Shown: positions 892-31,178 of the stretch, in pieces
Numbering within the stretch: the stretch's first letter is position 1
Layout of the letters: each line of letters starts with the position of its first letter
Assembly (NCBI GenBank): GCA_041648395.1
Contig: JBAZPC010000001.1
Coordinates: forward strand, 31,173-95,172
Length of the DNA: 64,000 bases
Origin: Minisyncoccota bacterium
GTDB lineage: Bacteria; Patescibacteriota; Minisyncoccia; UBA9983
Direction of reading: 5' to 3'
Position numbers and translations under genes: made by a program
Notes under the pieces: generated by a model
Seen by the model: only the letters and a program-made list of their open reading frames with translations
Told to the model about the DNA's origin: nothing
Database searches by the model: none

Positions 892-2583
892 ATGCCAGCA
901 ATTATTAAAATATTTGTATTAGGAACTATATTAGCTGGTTTTTCTAATCTTTTTTTTGGGTTGATAATATATTTTAAAAATAAAAAAGAAAAACAAAACA
1001 TTATTTTTCTTTTATTGGAGCTTTCTATAGTTTTATGGCTTTTTTCTTATGCAATATGGTTAGCCAAAGACAATGAAGTAAGCGCTCTTTTTTGGTCGCG
1101 TATGCTCAATTTAGGCGCCACCCTAATTCCCGTTCTGTTCTTACATTGGGTTGTTGCTTTTTTGGGGTTAGTGCGAAAAAAATTTTTAATATTCGCCTAT
1201 ATTTCAACAATAATTTTTTCTTTTTTTAGTTTCTCTTCTTTTTATATACAAAAAGTAAAGGAAGTGTCAATTTTTTCTTATTGGCCTCAAGCTGGGTGGT
1301 TGTATTCTATATTTTTAGCAACTTTTGTAATTTATTTTGGTTATGGTTTTATACTTTTATACGGATTTATTAAAGATAAATCTAATAATAAGGAAAGAAT
1401 TCTTCAGATAAAGTATATTTTTTTAGGGTCTATAATTAGTGCCATTGGCGGAATTTTTAATTTTCCCTTAATGTACGGGGTTCCGCTTATGCCTTTAACA
1501 TTGACAACTATTTTTCATCCTATCTTTTGGGCTTATGGAATTTTAAAACATAATTTATTCAACATAAAAGTAGTTGCTACGGAATTTTTAGTAATATTCT
1601 TGTTGGTTATCTTCCTTGTAAATATATTTTTCTACACAAGTATTTTTGAATTAAGTTTTAAAATATTTATTTTTATTGCATCTACTTTTCTTGGTATTTT
1701 TATTATCCGCTCCGTTCTCAAGGAGGTTAAAACCCGCGAGGAGATGGAGGGGCTGGCATGGAAGTTGGAACAGGCGAATATCAAATTGCAGGAGTTGGAT
1801 AAAGCCAAGTCGGATTTTGTGACTATCGCTTCACACCAATTAAGGACGCCCATCACCGCCATCAAGGGCTACGCCTCCATGGTTCTGGAGGGCTCGTTCG
1901 GCGCGGTGCCGGAAAAAGCGAAGGTTGCCGTAAGCAAGATATTTGAATCAAGCAACCGGCTGGTGGCGCTCATCAATGATTTTCTTAATTTAAGCAGGAT
2001 AGAGAGAGGAAAGATGGAATACGCGTTTGCGAAAGTGAATTTGAAAGAAATGATTGAGACAATTTTTGACGAATTCAAGACAATTAATGTAAAAAAGAAG
2101 ACACCATTAGATTTGAGTTTAAAAATTAACGATGGCGACTTCAGCACGAGCGCCGATTCGGACAAGATACGACAGACAATTTATAATTTGATAGACAACG
2201 CCGTAAAATACACTCAAAAAGGATTCGTGAAAATTTCCCTTTATAAAGACGATGGCGAGGGCGAAATAATCATGAAAGTTGAGGACTCGGGCAAGGGAAT
2301 GTCAAAAGAAACACTAGATAACATTTTTGAGAAATTCGCCCGCGCCAAGGGCGACGGCGAAAAATACCAAGTGGAAGGCACCGGTCTCGGGCTTTACGTG
2401 GCGCGGGAGATCGCCAAGGCGCACGGCGGAGACGTTTGGGCGGAAAGCGGGGGGCTGGATAAGGGAAGCGCTTTTATTTTGAAACTGCCTATGGATTTTA
2501 TTACTCCGGAAGAGCGCAGGAAAAAAGAGGAAGAAGAAAAAGCAAAAAAAGAGAAGGTGGAACAATTTATAAAAAAGATATAG
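892..2583 (+). CDS. Sensor histidine kinase with N-terminal polytopic (7TM-type) membrane domain, HisKA and HATPase_c domains, and a K/E-rich C-terminal tail
   Basis: The N-terminus has multiple hydrophobic helices. The H-box is SHQLRTPITAIKGYASMV, the N-box is IDNAVKYT, and the G2 box is GTGLGLYVAREIAKAHGG. The ATG at 892 lies directly after the upstream stop. Confidence 0.85.
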   Translation: MPAIIKIFVLGTILAGFSNLFFGLIIYFKNKKEKQNIIFLLLELSIVLWLFSYAIWLAKDNEVSALFWSRMLNLGATLIPVLFLHWVVAFLGLVRKKFLIFAYISTIIFSFFSFSSFYIQKVKEVSIFSYWPQAGWLYSIFLATFVIYFGYGFILLYGFIKDKSNNKERILQIKYIFLGSIISAIGGIFNFPLMYGVPLMPLTLTTIFHPIFWAYGILKHNLFNIKVVATEFLVIFLLVIFLVNIFFYTSIFELSFKIFIFIASTFLGIFIIRSVLKEVKTREEMEGLAWKLEQANIKLQELDKAKSDFVTIASHQLRTPITAIKGYASMVLEGSFGAVPEKAKVAVSKIFESSNRLVALINDFLNLSRIERGKMEYAFAKVNLKEMIETIFDEFKTINVKKKTPLDLSLKINDGDFSTSADSDKIRQTIYNLIDNAVKYTQKGFVKISLYKDDGEGEIIMKVEDSGKGMSKETLDNIFEKFARAKGDGEKYQVEGTGLGLYVAREIAKAHGGDVWAESGGLDKGSAFILKLPMDFITPEERRKKEEEEKAKKEKVEQFIKKI

Positions 2584-3288: not shown

Positions 3289-3415
3289 AATTATTTTAAT
3301 TGTAATACTCGCGGCGGTTGTGGTTTGGCTTTTGGCGACGCGCAAAAAAGGGGAGAAGAGCCGAAAGCGCGGGGTTAGAAAAGGGTTCGGCTTTTTACAT
3401 GAAATTGCCGGTTAA
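3281..3415 (+). pseudogene. Chimeric gene fragment: a diverged copy of the rmuC 5' end (MNEIILIVILAAVVVWLLATRKK) fused out of frame to a copy of the 3' end of a histidine-kinase gene
   Basis: The 36 nt ggttgtggtttggcttttggcgacgcgcaaaaaag are nearly identical to rmuC 8966-9003. The segment ...gaaagcgcggggttagaaaagggttcggctttttacatgaaattgccggttaaa matches 6112-6165, the HK 3' copy. It carries a TATAAA box 9 nt before the next gene. Confidence 0.5.
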
Positions 3416-3435
3416 AGAGGTATAAATTTACGTTA

Positions 3436-4377
3436 ATGAAATACGAATATAAAAAATTTAATATAAGATATACAGCCAGTTTTACTTCAAAATATAAAAA
3501 TAATGATATTAAGGTTTGGTTTGCAAGACCGACTGATTCCGAATGTCAAAAAATAGAAAAAATAAAGATTTCACCAAAACCACACTCTGATTATAATGAC
3601 AAACAAGGAAATAAAATTTTATACTTTAATTTCGAGAACCAAAAAAGTATAAAAGTACAAATGGATATTAAGGTAATCCTGTGGAAAAATAAAATAAATT
3701 TGTTAAAAGAAAAAATATCATTACCGTCGTTTTCTTCAAAAATATTTCAAAAATATACAAAAAATGAAAAGTTTCTAGAACAAACTTTGACAATAAAAAA
3801 TTTAACTAATCAAATTACTAGAAATGACCAATTTATTTTAGATAAAATCTTTTCAATAACAAAATTTTTAGAAAAAAATTTTAAATATACTTACCCTATC
3901 AAAAATAGGGGGGTTAAAAATTTAGATATTAATAATCTAAAAGGCGATTGTGGTGAAGTGGGTGCTTTATTTGTAACAATGTGCAGAATTTTAGGTATTC
4001 CAGCCCGAAACAACACTGGCTTTGTAATATATCGCGATGAATTAAACAACATATACGAACATGGATGGGGAAGTATTTATTTAAAACCTTATGGGTGGAT
4101 AGATATTGATCCGTTGGCTAATAATATATCTGAAAAAATAAATAAAGAGTATTTATATCACCAAAAAAATTATTTTCTATCTTTTACAAAAGGATTTAAT
4201 ATAAAAATTAATCCAAAAATTCCGAATAAATTTAAAATAGATTATTGGAATAATTTAGGACTACCTTTAACAAATGCATCTGTTCAGGTTTTGCAGCCGT
4301 TAGTTTTTGCATCTAAAGAAAAAGTAGTGTTTTTAGACAGCATAAAATTACTTCCCAATATAAAGAGCCCCAACTAA
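3436..4377 (+). CDS. Transglutaminase-like (Transglut_core) cysteine protease-fold protein
   Basis: Cys/His/Asp signature: GDCGEVGALFVTMCRILGIPARNNTGF ... EHGWGSIYLKPYGWIDIDP. This is the classic transglutaminase-like pattern G-x-C...R..GIPAR...H.W...D. Confidence 0.7.
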   Translation: MKYEYKKFNIRYTASFTSKYKNNDIKVWFARPTDSECQKIEKIKISPKPHSDYNDKQGNKILYFNFENQKSIKVQMDIKVILWKNKINLLKEKISLPSFSSKIFQKYTKNEKFLEQTLTIKNLTNQITRNDQFILDKIFSITKFLEKNFKYTYPIKNRGVKNLDINNLKGDCGEVGALFVTMCRILGIPARNNTGFVIYRDELNNIYEHGWGSIYLKPYGWIDIDPLANNISEKINKEYLYHQKNYFLSFTKGFNIKINPKIPNKFKIDYWNNLGLPLTNASVQVLQPLVFASKEKVVFLDSIKLLPNIKSPN

Positions 4378-4409
4378 AGTTAATTAGTTGGGGCAAAAAA
4401 GGGGATTTC

Positions 4410-4532
4410 TTACCCTTTCTTTACTCGTGCCGAAGACGAAGAACAACTTTTATGAATCGCGCCAACGACAAGATTTTTTGTGTTACCTTTTGCTTCAGCT
4501 TTTGGAGGAACATATTGTTTCTCTTTCTTCAT
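4410..4532 (-). CDS. Small 40-aa peptide, a candidate RiPP precursor: MKKEKQYVPPKAEAKGNTKNLVVGAIHKSCSSSSARVKKG
   Basis: The ORF is immediately downstream of the radical-SAM gene on the same strand. A strong Shine-Dalgarno AAGGAGGTGA (overlapping the rSAM stop) lies 8 nt before the ATG. The N-terminus is Lys-rich and leader-like, and the C-terminal segment is Cys/Ser-rich. It was not in the ORF track because it is under 60 aa. Confidence 0.45.
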   Translation of the reverse strand: MKKEKQYVPPKAEAKGNTKNLVVGAIHKSCSSSSARVKKG

Positions 4533-4540
4533 TGTTTTTT

Positions 4541-5914
4541 TCACCTCCTTTCCTTATTATTTTGAATTAAATGGTTTAAGGTTGTTATCCGACAATTTTC
4601 TGGTGACGGGCCCAAAAGATCGCTTCCTTCTAGAAAGGCCAGCCCCGGACAACGAGCACAAGAAGTAAGCAGTTGACATTTTGAACACTTTGTTAATTTA
4701 CTGATAATTAAACTGCGTAGGTATTGGAGACCAAGAGAGTTGTGCCAAATTTCTGAAAAATTATCTCCTTTTAAATCACCGACTTCATAAAGAAGTTGGT
4801 TGCAGGGCAATACTTTGCCAGAGGGAGTGATGGCGCACGAATTAAATCCGCTATAACACGGAGGAGCATTTGAGATATCAGAAAGTCCGAGATAAAATTG
4901 ATGATCCTGAAACGGTTTTCGCCCAGCGTAGAGGGCTGAAAAATCTTCATCCGCAAGAAATTCTTCTATCTGCCTATCACTCAACCGCAAGTTAAACGTA
5001 TCTTGCGATCCATCGTTGCGCGCAGTAATAATCGGGCTAGGGGAGAGTACGCAATCTAATTCTTCCGTAAGTTTTTTTACTTTATAGCGCTCATTAAAAT
5101 TTATCTGCATCATCGGAAACGCTATTTCAACCTTAACCCCTGCTTTTCTAAGATTCTTAATGCCATCTAAGCTTTTTTGAAATGACCCCGAAAGGCGTGT
5201 AATAGAATCGTGGATTTCGGTGGTTGCCCCATAAAGGCTTACTTGCACCCTTCTTACAGAATACTTTGCTAGCGTGGTTGCTGTTTCTTCACTTATTAGT
5301 GTGCCATTACTTAGTATGTCGATAACAAAATGGAGACTGCTGGCATATTTTACGATATCAATCGCATCTTTGCGTATAAAGAATTCTCCACCAGTAAGCG
5401 ACAAAAAGAGACACCTTTCTTTAGCTAATTCGCCTAAAATCCTTTTGATCTCAGATAGTCTTAAGGAAGGCAAGTTTCTTTCCATATAGCAATGTATACA
5501 TTTTTCATTGCAGGTGTAAGTAGTTTCGAATGTAGCTGCAAAAGGAATAAGATGTTTAATCGCTTCCATTTCTATAGCCAATAACACGTTTTCTCCTTCT
5601 GTTTCTGTGCCTAGGGCATTATTATGCTTGTCAACTTGAAGATGCCGATTATCAAGTTTTAAAAATCCCATTTGCACTGCTTCCTGAAGAAAGGTGTCAA
5701 CATCTTTTTTTGCAATTTTTACACTGAGATCATATTCGGTTGATAGCCATTTAATAACCTGATCATACTTTTGTCCGGATACTAGCTTTTGCCAGATAAT
5801 TGATGCAGCTTCGTTCCAAATAACGATTTTTTGATTTTTGCAGTTAAAAGCAACAACGTTGTCGTTAATGAGTCGCCAGCCAATTCTTGAATTTATCTCA
5901 ATTATTTCCATCAT
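4541..5914 (-). CDS. Radical SAM/SPASM-domain enzyme with an N-terminal PqqD-like RiPP recognition element (RRE), likely a peptide-modifying maturase
   Basis: The N-terminal ~90 aa fit the PqqD/RRE pattern (NEAASIIWQKL...DVDTFLQEAVQMGFL). The radical SAM motif is CNEKCIHC (CX3CX2C). The C-terminus has a Cys-rich SPASM/twitch region (CYSGFNSCAITPSGKVLPCNQ...CSKCQLLTSCARCPG). An AGGAGG sits before the ATG. Confidence 0.85.
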   Translation of the reverse strand: MMEIIEINSRIGWRLINDNVVAFNCKNQKIVIWNEAASIIWQKLVSGQKYDQVIKWLSTEYDLSVKIAKKDVDTFLQEAVQMGFLKLDNRHLQVDKHNNALGTETEGENVLLAIEMEAIKHLIPFAATFETTYTCNEKCIHCYMERNLPSLRLSEIKRILGELAKERCLFLSLTGGEFFIRKDAIDIVKYASSLHFVIDILSNGTLISEETATTLAKYSVRRVQVSLYGATTEIHDSITRLSGSFQKSLDGIKNLRKAGVKVEIAFPMMQINFNERYKVKKLTEELDCVLSPSPIITARNDGSQDTFNLRLSDRQIEEFLADEDFSALYAGRKPFQDHQFYLGLSDISNAPPCYSGFNSCAITPSGKVLPCNQLLYEVGDLKGDNFSEIWHNSLGLQYLRSLIISKLTKCSKCQLLTSCARCPGLAFLEGSDLLGPSPENCRITTLNHLIQNNKERR

Positions 5915-6021
5915 TTTTTCCTCCTTTCTGTTTATTTTTTAAAGACCTGTGGTCTTGTTTTCTGCTTTTAACCCTATACTTTTAATAGCTTTTGTCAATT
6001 TAAAAATGTATAATAATTAAA

Positions 6022-6180
6022 ATGGACACGGCGCAGATAGTGGAAGGCACCGGCCTCGGGCTTTACGTGGCGCGCGAGATTGCCAAGGCGCACGGCGGTA
6101 ATGTTTGGGCGGAAAGCGGGGGGCTGGACAAGGGCTCGGCTTTCTACATGAAATTGCCGGTTAAAAATGTTATATCATAA
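6022..6180 (+). pseudogene. Chimeric 52-codon ORF: the first six codons of rmuC (MDTAQI) fused in frame to a ~140-nt copy of a histidine-kinase HATPase C-terminus (…VEGTGLGLYVAREIAKAHGGNVWAESGGLDKGSAFYMKLPVKNVIS)
   Basis: Bases 6004-6039 are identical to 8917-8952, which is the rmuC promoter plus start. Bases 6040-6150 are about 90% identical to HK 2374-2484. Its stop overlaps the ATG of the next gene (TAATG). Confidence 0.45.
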
Positions 6181-6896
6181 TGAAATCTAAAAAAGATAAT
6201 AAATCAAATATAGAACGTAAAATTATTCCTATTGGCGGTGGATTACTGCGTTTGGACGAAACAATTACCATAGATAAATTTATTGTCAAAGAAAGCGGCA
6301 AAAAAAATCCGAAAGTTTTATTTATACCCACCGCAAGCAAAGATTTACTGGCATACTCCAACGTCTTTCGCCGTGTGTACGAAAAATTAGGGTGCCAAGT
6401 AAAAATCTTGCGTTTATTTAATAAAAGAAAATTTTCTCAAACAACATTAGAAAAACTCATCACAAGTGCCGACATTATTTATGTCGGTGGCGGTGATTAT
6501 GATATTCTGCTTTCGATGTGGAGGAAACACAAAATTATTTCTCTCATACGGTTAGCATACCAACAAGGAACCATTCTCACCGGGTTAAGCGCGGGATGTG
6601 CCGTCTGGTATGAATATCTCATAGATAGCGATAAGGATAAAAAAACTCGCCTCAAAAAAGGGCTCGGCATACTTGAAGGTGTCGTAATTCCTCACTATAG
6701 AACCGAGGATCCACTTTCTCTCGAGATTCGCAAGACAAAAATCATCGTTACTGGCATTGAAGACAAATGTGCCGTGATATACACTAACGAGCACCTAAGA
6801 GGTTCTATACCAGCAAGTAAAGAAAAGGCCTTTACAATTCGCCCTCCTTATGTTAAAAAGAAGCAGGTAACTTTGTACTTTCACAAATCTCATTAA
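6180..6896 (+). CDS. Peptidase S51 family (peptidase E / cyanophycinase-like serine peptidase)
   Basis: IIYVGGGDYDILL...GTILTGLSAGCAV (the Ser nucleophile in SAG) and the downstream VIPHY histidine align with E. coli peptidase E (IIIVGGGNTFQLL...YIGWSAGANLA...NPHF). Confidence 0.75.
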   Translation: MKSKKDNKSNIERKIIPIGGGLLRLDETITIDKFIVKESGKKNPKVLFIPTASKDLLAYSNVFRRVYEKLGCQVKILRLFNKRKFSQTTLEKLITSADIIYVGGGDYDILLSMWRKHKIISLIRLAYQQGTILTGLSAGCAVWYEYLIDSDKDKKTRLKKGLGILEGVVIPHYRTEDPLSLEIRKTKIIVTGIEDKCAVIYTNEHLRGSIPASKEKAFTIRPPYVKKKQVTLYFHKSH

Positions 6897-6915
6897 ACTA
6901 AAAAGGAGGTGGCAG

Positions 6916-7986
6916 ATGATCTCGAAAATTCCACGCCCCCTCCAGTATGGAGATGGGGTAGCTTTGGTCAATCCGGCTGGCGTACTTCCGGAGCGGTTCA
7001 AAAACCAATACAGATATGTCAAGGCTCATCTTGAGGAACTTGGATTTACTGTCAGAGACTTCGTAATTGAAAGTGGTTGGGAGGACGCGCGAAGGCGTAG
7101 TGAAACATTGCAGGCGGCGTTTACCGACCCGCAAGTGAAAGCGATACTGCCTCTCTGTGGTGGCGCGAGAATCTACGACATTCTTCCGCTGATTGATTAC
7201 GATGTGTTAGCCAGTCATCCGAAGATTATTTGCGGTTCGAGCGAGCTTTCGGCTCTTGTGGTAACAATCGCTGAGCGGGCGGGTATGGTAACGTTCTTTG
7301 GTCCGCATCTCAACTTTCTTAACCCCAAGGCGTCAAAACTTGAGAACAGATTCACGGTGAGGAGCTTTTGGAATATGCTCCAGTGGGACTGGCACGGAAG
7401 AAACGGCCTAAGTAAAAACGAGGCGCATCACTTCTTTGTTGCTCCTCGAAAGCCAACTCTTCCGGTGGTAATTCATAACATTTACCGTGATCCGACACGT
7501 ATTACAAATAATCGCTACAGAGACAACTTCTACTACACTCCTATCTCGGATCAGAATGTAACCGGACAGCTCTTGATTGGGTCACTTGCGGTGCTAATAC
7601 GTCTTTGTGAGGAGGGATTGAACCCTGACATAACGGATAAGATTGTCATGCTTGATTCGTTGGATATGTCTCTTGGGACGGTTGCCGAATTACTCCAGCG
7701 TTTCAATGCTCACTGCGATCTTTCCCATGCCACGGCAGTCGTCTTTTCCTCGCTCGCCGAGAGAACGGATCGAGAGAATCTTTTGTATCCGGAATTACGA
7801 GACATGGATCGGGTGAAGGGATTCCTTCAGGAAGTTTCTGAATTGCTCGGAGGAAAACTGCCTCTCTTTTATGGTTTTCCTGTCGGACACTGTGCGTACA
7901 AGCTCACTTTGCCGATTGGGATTACCGCCTCCATCGTTGTTGAAACCGGCGACTTGCTACTCGTGGAGTCTCCGTACCAACAATAA
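6916..7986 (+). CDS. Peptidase S66 family (LD-carboxypeptidase LdcA / microcin C7 immunity MccF-like)
   Basis: ILPLCGGARIYDILPLIDYDVLASHPKIICGSSELSALVV...VTFFGPHL aligns with LdcA (LAVRGGYGASRLLADIDWQAL...LLICGHSDFTAIQ...ITFSGPML). The C-terminal GFPVGH provides the catalytic His. A GGAGGTGG SD sits before the ATG. Confidence 0.75.
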   Translation: MISKIPRPLQYGDGVALVNPAGVLPERFKNQYRYVKAHLEELGFTVRDFVIESGWEDARRRSETLQAAFTDPQVKAILPLCGGARIYDILPLIDYDVLASHPKIICGSSELSALVVTIAERAGMVTFFGPHLNFLNPKASKLENRFTVRSFWNMLQWDWHGRNGLSKNEAHHFFVAPRKPTLPVVIHNIYRDPTRITNNRYRDNFYYTPISDQNVTGQLLIGSLAVLIRLCEEGLNPDITDKIVMLDSLDMSLGTVAELLQRFNAHCDLSHATAVVFSSLAERTDRENLLYPELRDMDRVKGFLQEVSELLGGKLPLFYGFPVGHCAYKLTLPIGITASIVVETGDLLLVESPYQQ

Positions 7987-8018: not shown

Positions 8019-8795
8019 TTACTTCTCTGCAAGGAGTTTGTTGATGAGCTGAGCGTCTTTGTCCGCTATACCGTATTCGGAATTTAACACCGTGGCTTGA
8101 AGACGTTCCCGAAGTTCGACATCGTGACTCAACTGATCAGCAAACGTTACAAGTGCCTCCCTCGTTTCCTTCTTGTAGTTCTGGAGTTTGGTGTACACCA
8201 CGTTCCGAAAGAATATAACAAGATCAAGGTCAGAGGCGTTGAGGGAGTCAAACTTTGCTCGGTCAAGCTCGTAAGCGAGTTCGCGACGCATAGTAAACAT
8301 AAGTTCAAGATATGCCGATGAAGCTTCTTGAACCCGCCGTCCTCTTACCAACTCAACGAAACTTGATATTGCGGTACCTATCATGTCGCCCGAGAAGATT
8401 TTACAGCCGAACGATACGGTAACATTCTCGTCCGCGAGGTGAGTATTCTCCTTGATGAAGTTATTTACTTCATCTCCCAACATTAAGAAAAACTTGTTCA
8501 CGACCGATTGGTCAGTTGCTACTCCGATAGCAAAGATTTCTTCTCCCGAAGGAATCATGCAAAAGGATGGAATCGCTTTCGAGTGCCTCTTGATAAATCC
8601 GTACATGAACGCACCAATTAGGCGATTGTAGATGTCTACAAGATTCTCCGCCAATGGACGTCCATACCGCGAGACAAAGACCCCAAGGTTATCGAGGTCT
8701 CCAGTGACCCCGAACAGAAACATATCTTGGTCGCGGTCGTAGGTTTCAACAACTTTCAAAATTTTTCTGCTCCAAATACGCTGGTGCTTTTTCAT
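8019..8795 (-). CDS. Hypothetical protein, possibly a divergent GGDEF-like palm-domain (nucleotide cyclase-like) protein
   Basis: The ORF is 258 aa with a good SD (AAAGGAGATAAGTC). The segment FGVTGDLDNLGVFVSRYGRPLAENLV loosely aligns with the GGDEF metal-binding/beta1 region (LDxDxFKxxNDxxGHxxGDxxL). SGEEIFAIGVATD loosely aligns with R-Y-GGEEF-AVLLP. The assignment is tentative. Confidence 0.4.
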   Translation of the reverse strand: MKKHQRIWSRKILKVVETYDRDQDMFLFGVTGDLDNLGVFVSRYGRPLAENLVDIYNRLIGAFMYGFIKRHSKAIPSFCMIPSGEEIFAIGVATDQSVVNKFFLMLGDEVNNFIKENTHLADENVTVSFGCKIFSGDMIGTAISSFVELVRGRRVQEASSAYLELMFTMRRELAYELDRAKFDSLNASDLDLVIFFRNVVYTKLQNYKKETREALVTFADQLSHDVELRERLQATVLNSEYGIADKDAQLINKLLAEK

Positions 8796-29504: not shown

Positions 29505-31178
29505 TTATTTTAAATACTCCGGCGTATTCACACTCATCCAATCTAAAAGCTGGCGCATGACGGCAGGCGCGCCGACAAGATTGGCGTAAGGTCCTTTTTC
29601 CATGACCAGCGCAAAAGCGTATTTCGGATTATTGTAAGGCCAAAAACCGATAATCCACGAGTTAACATATTTCTTCGCCGCGCCGACCTCGGCTGTCCCC
29701 GTTTTCGCCGCGATATTGACGCCCCAAATATTCAACGCCGACGCTGTGCCCTCCGTCACTCCCATCCTCATCCCCTCGTGAACAACTTGAAAATAATTTT
29801 GAGGGATATTTAAGTCGCGAATTATTTGCAAATTATTTTTAGAATTGTCGCGAAGCAAGTGCGGTTGAATTATTTTTCCGCTATTCGCCACGGCCGCGGC
29901 ATAAACCGCCATTTCAATCGGCGTGACATGAAAATATCCCTGGCCGATGGACGCGTTATAGGTGTCGCCTATTCTCCATATTGGGTCCTCGGGACTGCTC
30001 TTCGCCTTAAGTTCCGCGTTCGGCACCGTCCCGTTTGTTTCGCCATTCAGGTCAATTTTTGTTTTTAAATCAAAACCGAATTTTTCCGCGTATTCTTCTA
30101 TTTTTTTTATACCCAACCCCTTCTGCCCTTCAAATCCTCCGCCGACTTCATAAAAATAAACATCCGAAGAAACGGCGAGAGCTCTTCTCATATCCACCCA
30201 GCCGTGCGCTTTCCAATCCTTAAATATACTTTTTTTGTCGGGGAAAAACGGATTAGGAAGAGAAATAAAGCCGGCGCTGAAAATTTGTTTTTCCGGCGTT
30301 ATAACCCCTTCATTTAAAGCGGCGATGGCGATAAGCGGTTTTATGATGGAACCGGGCGCGTATAAGCCGGAAATGGCGCGATTCAAAAACGGCTTGTTTG
30401 TATCACCGATAAATTCTTTTATTTTTTCTTTCTGCTCGCCTTTGGAGAGAATTTCGGAATTGTATTCGGGATAGCTTACCAAAGACAAAACTTCTCCATT
30501 GTTGGCGTCAAGGATAATGCCGGCGCCCCCCTTGAATCCCCTTTCTTCGGCTGTTGATTTTATGGAATTAAAAAGCTGCGCTTGTATTTTTGAATCAATC
30601 GTGAGAATCGCGTCCTTGCCTTGCTCCGGTTGTTTTTGCAAGCTTTCAGAAATGACATTGTTTTGAGAATCAACTTCGCTTATTTTCACTCCCGCTTCGC
30701 CGAAAAGCATTTTTTCGTAAATTTTTTCTATGCCGTTTTTACCGGTCACGGCTTCCCTAATTGCGTCTTTGTTGTTTGCTAAATCTTCTTCCGACGGAAG
30801 GCCTAAATATCCCAAAACATGGCCGAATCCGCCGGCCTCCGCGTATTTCCTTAAATCTATATCGTTCCACGCCAATTTTTCTTTATTGCGGTCGTAAATT
30901 ATGCCTCTGTTCGGAATAATAAAAATTTTCTTCAAGCTGTTGCTCTCGCTCCTCTTGGCATAATCCTCCCCGTGCACCGCCTGCAGAAAAAAAATCTTCG
31001 TCGCGAAAAGAAGCCCTATCGCCAAAAAAACGGAAACCGCGCCGTAAAAAGATCTCTTGCTTATCGGCCTCTCTATCTTCCCTTCCATTTGCTGAACGTC
31101 AAAGCCGGGAATATTTTTTGAATCCATGAATATCTCGTCGGGATAAATAGAGGGGTCTTTTTTTCTTTTCTTGAACAT
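29505..31178 (-). CDS. mrdA: Penicillin-binding protein 2 (class B transpeptidase)
   Basis: SxxK is SIIKPL, SxD is SSD, and the KTG motif is KTGTA. It lies downstream of mreBCD. Confidence 0.8.
   Translation of the reverse strand: MFKKRKKDPSIYPDEIFMDSKNIPGFDVQQMEGKIERPISKRSFYGAVSVFLAIGLLFATKIFFLQAVHGEDYAKRSESNSLKKIFIIPNRGIIYDRNKEKLAWNDIDLRKYAEAGGFGHVLGYLGLPSEEDLANNKDAIREAVTGKNGIEKIYEKMLFGEAGVKISEVDSQNNVISESLQKQPEQGKDAILTIDSKIQAQLFNSIKSTAEERGFKGGAGIILDANNGEVLSLVSYPEYNSEILSKGEQKEKIKEFIGDTNKPFLNRAISGLYAPGSIIKPLIAIAALNEGVITPEKQIFSAGFISLPNPFFPDKKSIFKDWKAHGWVDMRRALAVSSDVYFYEVGGGFEGQKGLGIKKIEEYAEKFGFDLKTKIDLNGETNGTVPNAELKAKSSPEDPIWRIGDTYNASIGQGYFHVTPIEMAVYAAAVANSGKIIQPHLLRDNSKNNLQIIRDLNIPQNYFQVVHEGMRMGVTEGTASALNIWGVNIAAKTGTAEVGAAKKYVNSWIIGFWPYNNPKYAFALVMEKGPYANLVGAPAVMRQLLDWMSVNTPEYLK

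Follow-up and report, generated by a model that had tools for sequence, protein, structure and literature searches.

A short precursor-like peptide gene conserved between a radical-SAM maturase gene and a transglutaminase-fold enzyme gene in Patescibacteria

Within a stretch of 64,000 nucleotides from a Minisyncoccota bacterium (positions 31,173 to 95,172 of contig JBAZPC010000001.1, assembly GCA_041648395.1; hereafter the window), we analyzed an open reading frame (ORF) of 40 codons that lies on the minus strand directly behind the gene of a radical S-adenosylmethionine (rSAM) enzyme and faces the convergent gene of a transglutaminase-like (TG-like) protein. The ORF is a genuine gene that recurs with both neighbors across Patescibacteria, and it probably encodes the precursor of a peptide that is ribosomally synthesized and then post-translationally modified (RiPP). 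The features of the locus, in window coordinates, are the following.

3436..4377, plus strand: transglutaminase-fold Cys-His-Asp enzyme of 313 residues, proposed leader peptidase (PF01841, Transglut_core)
4367..4394, no strand assigned: terminator hairpin directly after the peptide stop, with an 11-bp GC-rich stem and a T-rich tail (-19.9 kcal/mol, z = -4.1)
4410..4532, minus strand: precursor-like peptide gene of 40 residues, stop codon (4410-4412) included, recognized by its conservation after the rSAM gene and its coding signature
4413..4475, minus strand: proposed core, residues 20-40 (NLVVGAIHKSCSSSSARVKKG), with a higher conservation than that of the leader
4443..4454, minus strand: H-K-(G/S)-C motif, residues 27-30, proposed modification site with invariant H27, K28 and C30
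4476..4532, minus strand: proposed leader, residues 1-19 (MKKEKQYVPPKAEAKGNTK), with a putative boundary
4503..4514, minus strand: YVPP, the YxxP leader motif, residues 7-10, assigned from conservation and its fit to a lasso-type motif
4541..4550, minus strand: Shine-Dalgarno (SD) sequence AAGGAGGTGA, whose last three bases, TGA (4543..4541), are the rSAM stop codon
4541..5914, minus strand: peptide maturase of 457 residues with a RiPP recognition element (RRE), a radical-SAM and a SPASM domain, assigned from Pfam domains, an AlphaFold2 (AF2) model and fold matches
4592..4858, minus strand: SPASM cysteines C353, C360, C371, C410, C413, C419, C422 and C441, invariant or at least 90% conserved
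5489..5512, minus strand: CxxxCxxC radical-SAM cluster motif (C135, C139, C142), all invariant in 33 homologs
5645..5914, minus strand: N-terminal, PqqD-like RRE, residues ca. 1-90, assigned from profile matches to lasso B1 structures

Read along the minus strand, AAGGAGGTGA is followed by a spacer of 8 nt (AAAAAACA, 4540..4533) and then by ATG AAG AAA GAG, the ATG at 4532..4530 opening a frame that closes with TAA at 4412..4410 and translates as MKKEKQYVPPKAEAKGNTKNLVVGAIHKSCSSSSARVKKG. An earlier note on this DNA, made from the letters alone, had described the same SD, spacer, start codon, overlap with the rSAM stop and 40-residue product, and re-reading of the coordinates confirmed them all. 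Its description of the ORF as unannotated holds for the track of ORFs of at least 60 residues, from which the peptide is absent, but not for GenBank, where it carries the label 'hypothetical protein WC587_00240 [Candidatus Paceibacterota bacterium]' (P0130). In the mechanical ORF list the frame begins further upstream, with a GTG at 4544 (44 residues); we prefer the ATG owing to its spacing from the SD. This SD is a 10-mer present once on the two strands of the window, against 0.05 copies expected. At the other end of the gene the terminator hairpin separates the convergent peptide and TG-like genes. No promoter is claimed here, as the sigma-70 scan gave results no better than those from shuffled sequences. 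An Rfam scan of 3300..6300 returned no family that accounts for the region, the sole match being a sub-threshold one to NsiR1 (20 bits, the gathering score being 39) that covers the terminator hairpin only.

An ORF of 40 codons proves nothing by itself, given that the first 12 kb of the window hold 108 ORFs of at least 30 residues; it is the comparison with related sequences that is decisive for the reality of this gene. The rSAM protein has ca. 88 close relatives (43-76% identity), nearly all of them in Patescibacteria-type metagenome bins, and we compared at least 17 independent loci among these (L001-L007, L081-L084, L161, L163 and L165-L168), i.e., 18 with the window. An ORF of 33-42 residues and of the same pattern was found in all 17, starting a few bases from the rSAM stop codon or overlapping it, and with the window included the peptide is present and intact downstream of the rSAM gene in every locus. 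A GGAGG-type SD precedes it in ca. 14 of the 18, a weaker purine-rich stretch taking its place in L004, L006, L083 and L166, and GC-rich hairpins followed by T runs are seen just past the peptide stop of the homologous loci (judged by eye in the printed, unfolded sequences). In the final 25 codons, compared across 15 loci, the proportion of synonymous differences (pS) is saturated at 0.83 and that of nonsynonymous differences (pN) is 0.23, yielding a pN/pS of 0.28 in the peptide frame as opposed to 1.14 and 2.4 in two shifted frames. Variability reaches 0.52 at third codon positions and is only 0.11 at second positions. The peptide frame is open in all 18 loci, while each of the five other frames carries stops in at least half of them. 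The ORF is thus a genuine gene under purifying selection in Patescibacteria. The earlier note had taken the peptide for a precursor acted on by the adjacent rSAM enzyme and had proposed to look for conservation beside rSAM homologs and for frame disruptions in close relatives; the former is what the comparison supports and the latter were encountered in none of the loci. As judged by the labels of metagenome-assembled genome (MAG) records, two of which are questionable (those of a 'Pseudomonadota' contig of 5 kb and of a bin named 'Saccharibacteria'), the genes occur together in groups named Paceibacterota, Tagabacteria, Portnoybacteria and Parcubacteria.

A peptide profile retrieved 35 clusters from a database of 5.8 billion proteins, all hypothetical or unnamed, and a hidden Markov model (HMM) search of 1.84 billion cluster representatives returned 8 short peptide relatives. 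The same HMM search also returned three long proteins, i.e., P0254, a tandem 'GNHKGCPYVSSRTEQ' repeat protein that we treated as a chance or low-complexity match, and P0255 and P0256, in which the matches are short repeated stretches. Scans of 15 peptides against Pfam and NCBIfam at E <= 10 gave no match.

The anatomy of the peptide was examined in an alignment of 34 sequences (A5). P10, H27, K28 and C30 are invariant, and Y7 (94%), G16 (94%), T18 (94%), A25, S32 (97%), K38, K39 and G40 are conserved in at least 90% of the members, with R36 following at 88%. The N-terminal half reads (K-rich)-Y-x-x-P-x-(A/I/V/T)-x-x-x-G-(N/D)-T-K and the C-terminal half (L/V)(V/I)(V/I)(A/G)A-I-H-K-(G/S)-C-x-S-S-x-x-R-x-K-K-G, the window peptide having H-K-S-C at residues 27-30. 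Variability peaks at 3.09 bits in column 20, which directly follows G-(N/D)-T-K; this is the behavior to be expected at a predicted leader/core junction. T18, followed by a Lys and then by this column, is relevant to the penultimate-Thr criterion of lasso leaders. The core half is the more conserved of the two, with a mean top-residue frequency of 0.77 against 0.62 in the leader half, and it holds one conserved Cys. Asp and Glu are absent from the last 21 residues in 32 of the 34 peptides, the window's included, and over the entire peptide the net charge is between +5 and +12. Within the conserved S32-x-x-x-R36, Ser or Thr prevails at the middle position, where Ala occurs in some members only.

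Several divergent peptides deviate from this pattern. Two database peptides have a changed motif around the Cys: P0253, outside A5, reads INKGC, Asn replacing His to give an NxxC motif, and P0252 reads HRGC, with Arg in place of Lys. Shortened leaders that start with MxxPxV (or MRPK..) are found in L165 (ca. 6480..6585), P0147, P0154 and L168 (ca. 6340..6440); in these Tyr-less leaders the initiator Met occupies the Tyr position, and the rSAM proteins of short-leader members (P0067, P0068) have a diverged RRE without a precomputed PqqD match.

In the rSAM enzyme, Pfam recognizes PqqD (PF05402, residues 21-85, 4.2e-8), Radical_SAM (PF04055, residues 130-271, 3.5e-21) and SPASM (PF13186, residues 353-414, 9.6e-9). 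Its AF2 model (pLDDT 90.3) has SuiB, CteB, SkfB, TigE, PqqE and anSME as closest folds, with 14-18% identity to the solved members, and this likeness marks it as an RRE-containing peptide maturase. In the NCBIfam scan no equivalog reached its cut-off, and the best matches (AhbD, NirJ2, MftC, WgkB, ScmE, AlbA and others) cover many chemistries; the scores in bits, each against its cut-off, were 114.8/265 for MftC (TIGR03962), 82.8/850 for AlbA, 76.7/625 for StsB, 63.9/300 for SkfB and 63.5/381 for PqqE (TIGR02109). Owing to these similar scores, none of them at the cut-off, the sequence of the enzyme does not fix its chemistry. A profile built from the N-terminal 100 residues was searched against the PDB and matched TbiB1 (6.5e-10), 9x90, a 'lasso peptide biosynthesis PqqD family chaperone' (6.6e-8), and TfuB1 (1.3e-6), as well as 9x8z, a 'PqqD family protein' whose pathway is unstated in the output (2.4e-6). 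Genuine PqqD scored E = 1.3, and the RREs within SuiB and CteB gave no match at E <= 10. By profile similarity, the RRE is closest to lasso-peptide B1 proteins. Lasso RREs bind a [Y/W]xxPx[L/V/I/F/A] leader motif (PMC13381572), and the leader pattern Y7xxP10x(A/I/V/T) fits it. The division into a Lys-rich leader and a C-terminal core that the earlier note had drawn is thereby supported, with a lasso-B1-like RRE in the enzyme and YxxPx[A/I/V] in the N-terminal half of the peptide.

In each of the 16 loci that could be assessed, the TG-like gene lies next to the peptide gene and converges on it; the contigs of L006 and L084 end too early. Its product belongs to a family of 95 clusters, all at least 40% identical to the window protein, in which the C172, H209 and D225 triad is invariant; by a tally from the tables, 29 of these clusters have a longest contig equal in size to that of an rSAM cluster. 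The closest fold to its AF2 model (pLDDT 92.8) is 3isr, a COG1305-type putative cysteine protease (1e-15), with TgpA also matched. PF01841 was found in 31 of 31 members and PF13471 in one of them, at E = 0.27. As the fold search returned generic transglutaminase-like proteins and no lasso protease, we do not claim a homolog of the lasso B2 protease. All neighbors besides the trio vary between loci, e.g., FtsEX, RecO, glycolysis genes, major facilitator superfamily (MFS) transporters and tetratricopeptide repeat (TPR) proteins. The rSAM maturase, the peptide and the convergent transglutaminase-fold enzyme are linked and form a three-gene module. No conserved exporter or immunity gene was found around it in the annotated loci, which leaves the role of a secreted antibiotic unsupported.

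The window also has S51 and S66 peptidase genes (6180..7986) next to that of the rSAM enzyme. They were considered as leader peptidases and set aside, as they are not adjacent to the module in other loci. Two related genomes carry further RiPP-like genes within 5 kb of the module (L168 1..4350 and L167 4885..7422), either a discrete PqqD and a second rSAM/SPASM gene with ThiF and MFS genes, or two more radical-SAM genes.

As read from sequence, the module shows every architectural trait of a radical-SAM RiPP pathway that can be checked. The known RRE-rSAM-SPASM maturases, i.e., SuiB (streptide), CteB (the ranthipeptide thermocellin), and AlbA and SkfB (sactipeptides), share its three-domain architecture, provide its closest folds and likewise have a short cognate peptide gene per enzyme with Cys in the core. 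Here, however, there is a single Cys rather than several and the peptide gene lies downstream of the enzyme, at the low identity to solved members and with the unreached equivalog models given above. In contrast to SuiB and CteB, the RRE is lasso-B1-like and the protease partner would be a transglutaminase-fold enzyme. The curated families among the best NCBIfam matches (sactipeptide, PQQ, mycofactocin, GeoRSP, SCM, ACGX and HxsC) do not accommodate the enzyme at their cut-offs either.

With lasso peptides the module has in common a B1-like RRE (TbiB1, TfuB1), a YxxPx[A/I] leader, a conserved Thr near the predicted junction and a Cys-His-Asp transglutaminase-fold enzyme that is always adjacent. 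It differs in that the protease-like protein belongs to PF01841/COG1305 and not to PF13471 (MEROPS C96), in that the RRE is fused to the rSAM enzyme, and in that the core lacks an Asp/Glu acceptor (the macrolactam position 7-9) in 32 of the 34 peptides. An Asn-synthetase-like lasso cyclase had no Pfam match within 5 kb on either side of the module in six annotated loci or on one shorter contig, nor was one present among the six ORFs scanned beside the module in the window. Given that cyclase, acidic acceptor and B2-family protease are all missing, the module is not a lasso peptide system.

The streptococcal single-ring thioether peptides of the radical-SAM RiPP (RaS-RiPP) group are likewise made by rSAM/SPASM enzymes and resemble the core in having a short x-x-C motif (here H-K-G/S-C) beside Ser/Gly. 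Their links run from Asn-Cbeta to Cys-S in NxxC, from Cys-S to Ser/Gly-Calpha in GGG/streptosactin and from Asn-Calpha to Cys-S in QMP. As opposed to the NxxC peptides, all 34 A5 peptides have His instead of Asn (the one divergent relative P0253 reads NKGC), the phylum is another one, there is no shp/rgg context, and a crosslink is here predicted from sequence.

Cofactor-type systems (PqqA/PqqE/PqqD and MftA/MftC/MftB) and SCIFF peptides share with the module a core more conserved than the leader, a PqqD-type recognition domain and the lack of a conserved exporter. The peptide, however, has neither the Glu/Tyr pair of PqqA nor the C-terminal Val-Tyr of MftA nor the six cysteines of SCIFF.

More distant homologs of the enzyme (29-37% identity), which also consist of RRE, rSAM and SPASM domains, occur in Acidobacteriota and are accompanied by a downstream peptide with YxxP, a hydrophobic stretch and Cys. 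We considered these (L008 onwards) as the same system and rejected this, since the peptide is different and there is no TG-like gene; they constitute a sister family. Its peptide has 54-61 residues with ETLALACGK...QC, and an NTP_transf_5 protein is present. The sister family is represented by L008-L055 and L085-L160 (e.g., L010 4451..4621) from Acidobacteriota, Rokubacteria and related MAGs, its peptides show the conserved pattern ..KRxYVKPQCVSEPIYETLALACGKLPGQ..C..RRS without any NCBIfam or Pfam match, and a PF14907 nucleotidyltransferase gene lies upstream in L010, the one locus scanned. A literature search, which reached neither much of the subscription work nor the large rSAM-RiPP network studies, found no paper describing the Patescibacteria module. 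It is uncharacterized, with no Pfam or NCBIfam model for its peptide.

Taken together, we consider it probable that 4410..4532 is the precursor peptide gene of an uncharacterized radical-SAM RiPP system in Patescibacteria, working as follows. The SD, the strongest in the window, would drive translation of the peptide at high rate, with coupling to the rSAM gene's end, and the lasso-B1-like RRE that is part of the rSAM enzyme would bind the leader (YxxPx[A/I]xxxG[N/D]T). The rSAM/SPASM domain may then abstract a hydrogen atom in the conserved core and form one crosslink involving Cys30. Known rSAM links include Asn-Cbeta to Cys-S, made by NxxcB, and Cys-S to Ser/Gly-Calpha, made by GggB (PMC11851443). 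The most likely product would be a small thioether ring, either from Cys30 to His27 as an HxxC analog of the NxxC link or from Cys30 to Ser32/Gly29 as a sactionine-type Calpha link. Cys chemistry for this branch of rSAM enzymes is supported by the sister clade, whose peptides also combine YxxP with Cys. In lasso pathways the leader is removed by a transglutaminase-like Cys protease that needs the RRE (PMC10885120), and this B2 protease reads the penultimate Thr of the leader (PMC10368454). By analogy, the cytoplasmic Cys-His-Asp transglutaminase-fold enzyme may remove the leader near T18-K19 and leave a cationic peptide of ca. 21 residues. Which chemistry takes place, where the leader is cut, what the TG-like enzyme does and which biological function results are inferred here. 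It is tentatively possible that the module represents a new RiPP class specific to Patescibacteria, in which lasso leader logic (a B1-like RRE, a YxxP leader and a transglutaminase-fold protease) is combined with an rSAM/SPASM enzyme instead of a cyclase and yields an undescribed crosslink (e.g., His-to-Cys in H-K-G-C). On this view, and since no exporter is conserved, the product may act inside the cell or at the interface between episymbiont and host, and not as a diversifying antibiotic.

A number of observations weigh against this precursor reading. Modification, cleavage and expression of the peptide are all predicted from sequence. In the core there is but one Cys, which sets it apart from typical sacti- and ranthipeptides. 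All eight SPASM cysteines are conserved, and a comparison with the structures of CteB and anSME then suggests that the auxiliary clusters are fully ligated and do not offer an open site to a substrate Cys. Maturases of the C-C, C-S and cofactor kinds all match the enzyme with about the same score. The TG-like enzyme is of the COG1305/PF01841 type with an N-terminal beta-sandwich and falls outside the lasso B2 family, the spacing from G to T in the leader is 2 residues where that of the canonical lasso motif is 6, and an exporter or immunity gene is not among the conserved neighbors in the annotated loci.

In a rival reading, the peptide would be the substrate of the rSAM enzyme and the chemistry would not be a Cys thioether, e.g., an anSME-like oxidation of Ser32 (or Cys30) to the aldehyde within S32-x-(S/T/A/G)-x-R36, a C-C or C-N crosslink at His27 or Lys28, or an epimerization. 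S32 and R36 are highly conserved (97% and 88%) at the spacing of the sulfatase motif (C/S)-x-(P/A)-x-R, the closest folds include anSME, the SPASM pattern with its eight Cys looks like that of fully ligated enzymes, and the rSAM protein scores alike against WgkB, MftC and AhbD. However, the third position of the motif is mostly Ser or Thr and not Pro or Ala, no anSME equivalog is found among the best NCBIfam matches, and the invariance of Cys30 argues for its direct involvement, a Cys being conserved in the peptides of the sister clade as well. We regard a non-thioether product as unlikely.

A comparably low probability is given to the suggestion that the TG-like enzyme is no leader peptidase, and instead couples or uncouples the Lys-rich peptide (with its K28, K38, K39 and C-terminal G) as an acyl-transferase or isopeptidase, the partner being another molecule or protein, or trims it to a cofactor-like product as in PQQ and mycofactocin. 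That the enzyme is a general PF01841/COG1305 protein, a group with the protein-glutamine gamma-glutamyltransferase TgpA among its solved relatives, would agree with this. A core that exceeds the leader in conservation, a trait of single-product or cofactor-type systems, the lack of a conserved exporter and the MftC-like scores that extend over the whole rSAM/SPASM region also speak for such a role. Against it, the peptide has no conserved Gln donor, further tailoring genes are not conserved, and the combination of a lasso-type RRE with its leader logic has a known transglutaminase-fold protease partner.

The net charge (+5 to +12) and the very high sequence conservation would also suit an unmodified small basic protein, binding e.g. 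nucleic acid or the ribosome, in which case the rSAM enzyme would act on another substrate and the adjacency would reflect operon packing. We consider this very improbable: the gene is tightly coupled to that of an enzyme with a peptide-binding RRE, to which the YxxP of the peptide is matched, the trio moves together across otherwise unrelated neighborhoods, and the family occurs nowhere else, with only the 8 short relatives among the 1.84 billion cluster representatives. Finally, a chance ORF or a non-coding element (a terminator or small RNA region located 3'-terminally on the rSAM gene), as suggested by the shortness of the ORF, the many comparable mechanical ORFs and the NsiR1 match overlapping the terminator hairpin, has a negligible probability and is already refuted by the comparative sequence data, as the amino acids are conserved while synonymous sites are saturated, the frame is the sole open one in all loci, the SD is strong, and the NsiR1 match is well below its gathering score and restricted to the hairpin.

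Patescibacteria (also known as the Candidate Phyla Radiation, CPR) have very small genomes and almost no characterized secondary metabolism. Given such tiny genomes and so little secondary metabolism, a self-contained module of three genes is probably important to them, and its core peptide is nearly invariant across the groups named above. Should the precursor reading hold, a lasso-type leader/RRE pair would have been recruited to radical-SAM chemistry, and the module may reveal a new single-ring crosslink. Consisting of a 40-residue peptide and two soluble enzymes, it is amenable to heterologous expression. For annotation, the peptide gene illustrates clearly that a functional gene can fall short of the length cut-offs usually set for ORFs.

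Two further ORFs of the window lie on the far side of the rSAM gene. A stand-alone ORF of 52 residues (6022..6180, plus strand), between the rSAM and S51 peptidase genes, copies the C-terminal ATPase segment (2371..2493, plus strand) of the histidine kinase encoded at 892..2583, with 37 of 41 aligned residues identical and 84% identity at the DNA level. Both copies have a GC content of ca. 62% within a region of 30-45% GC, and the ORF looks like a gene remnant or recombination patch. An ORF of 258 residues on the minus strand (8019..8795), without a Pfam or NCBIfam match at E <= 0.01, sits in a stretch (6.8-8.8 kb) whose GC content of 0.45-0.49 is above that of the module.

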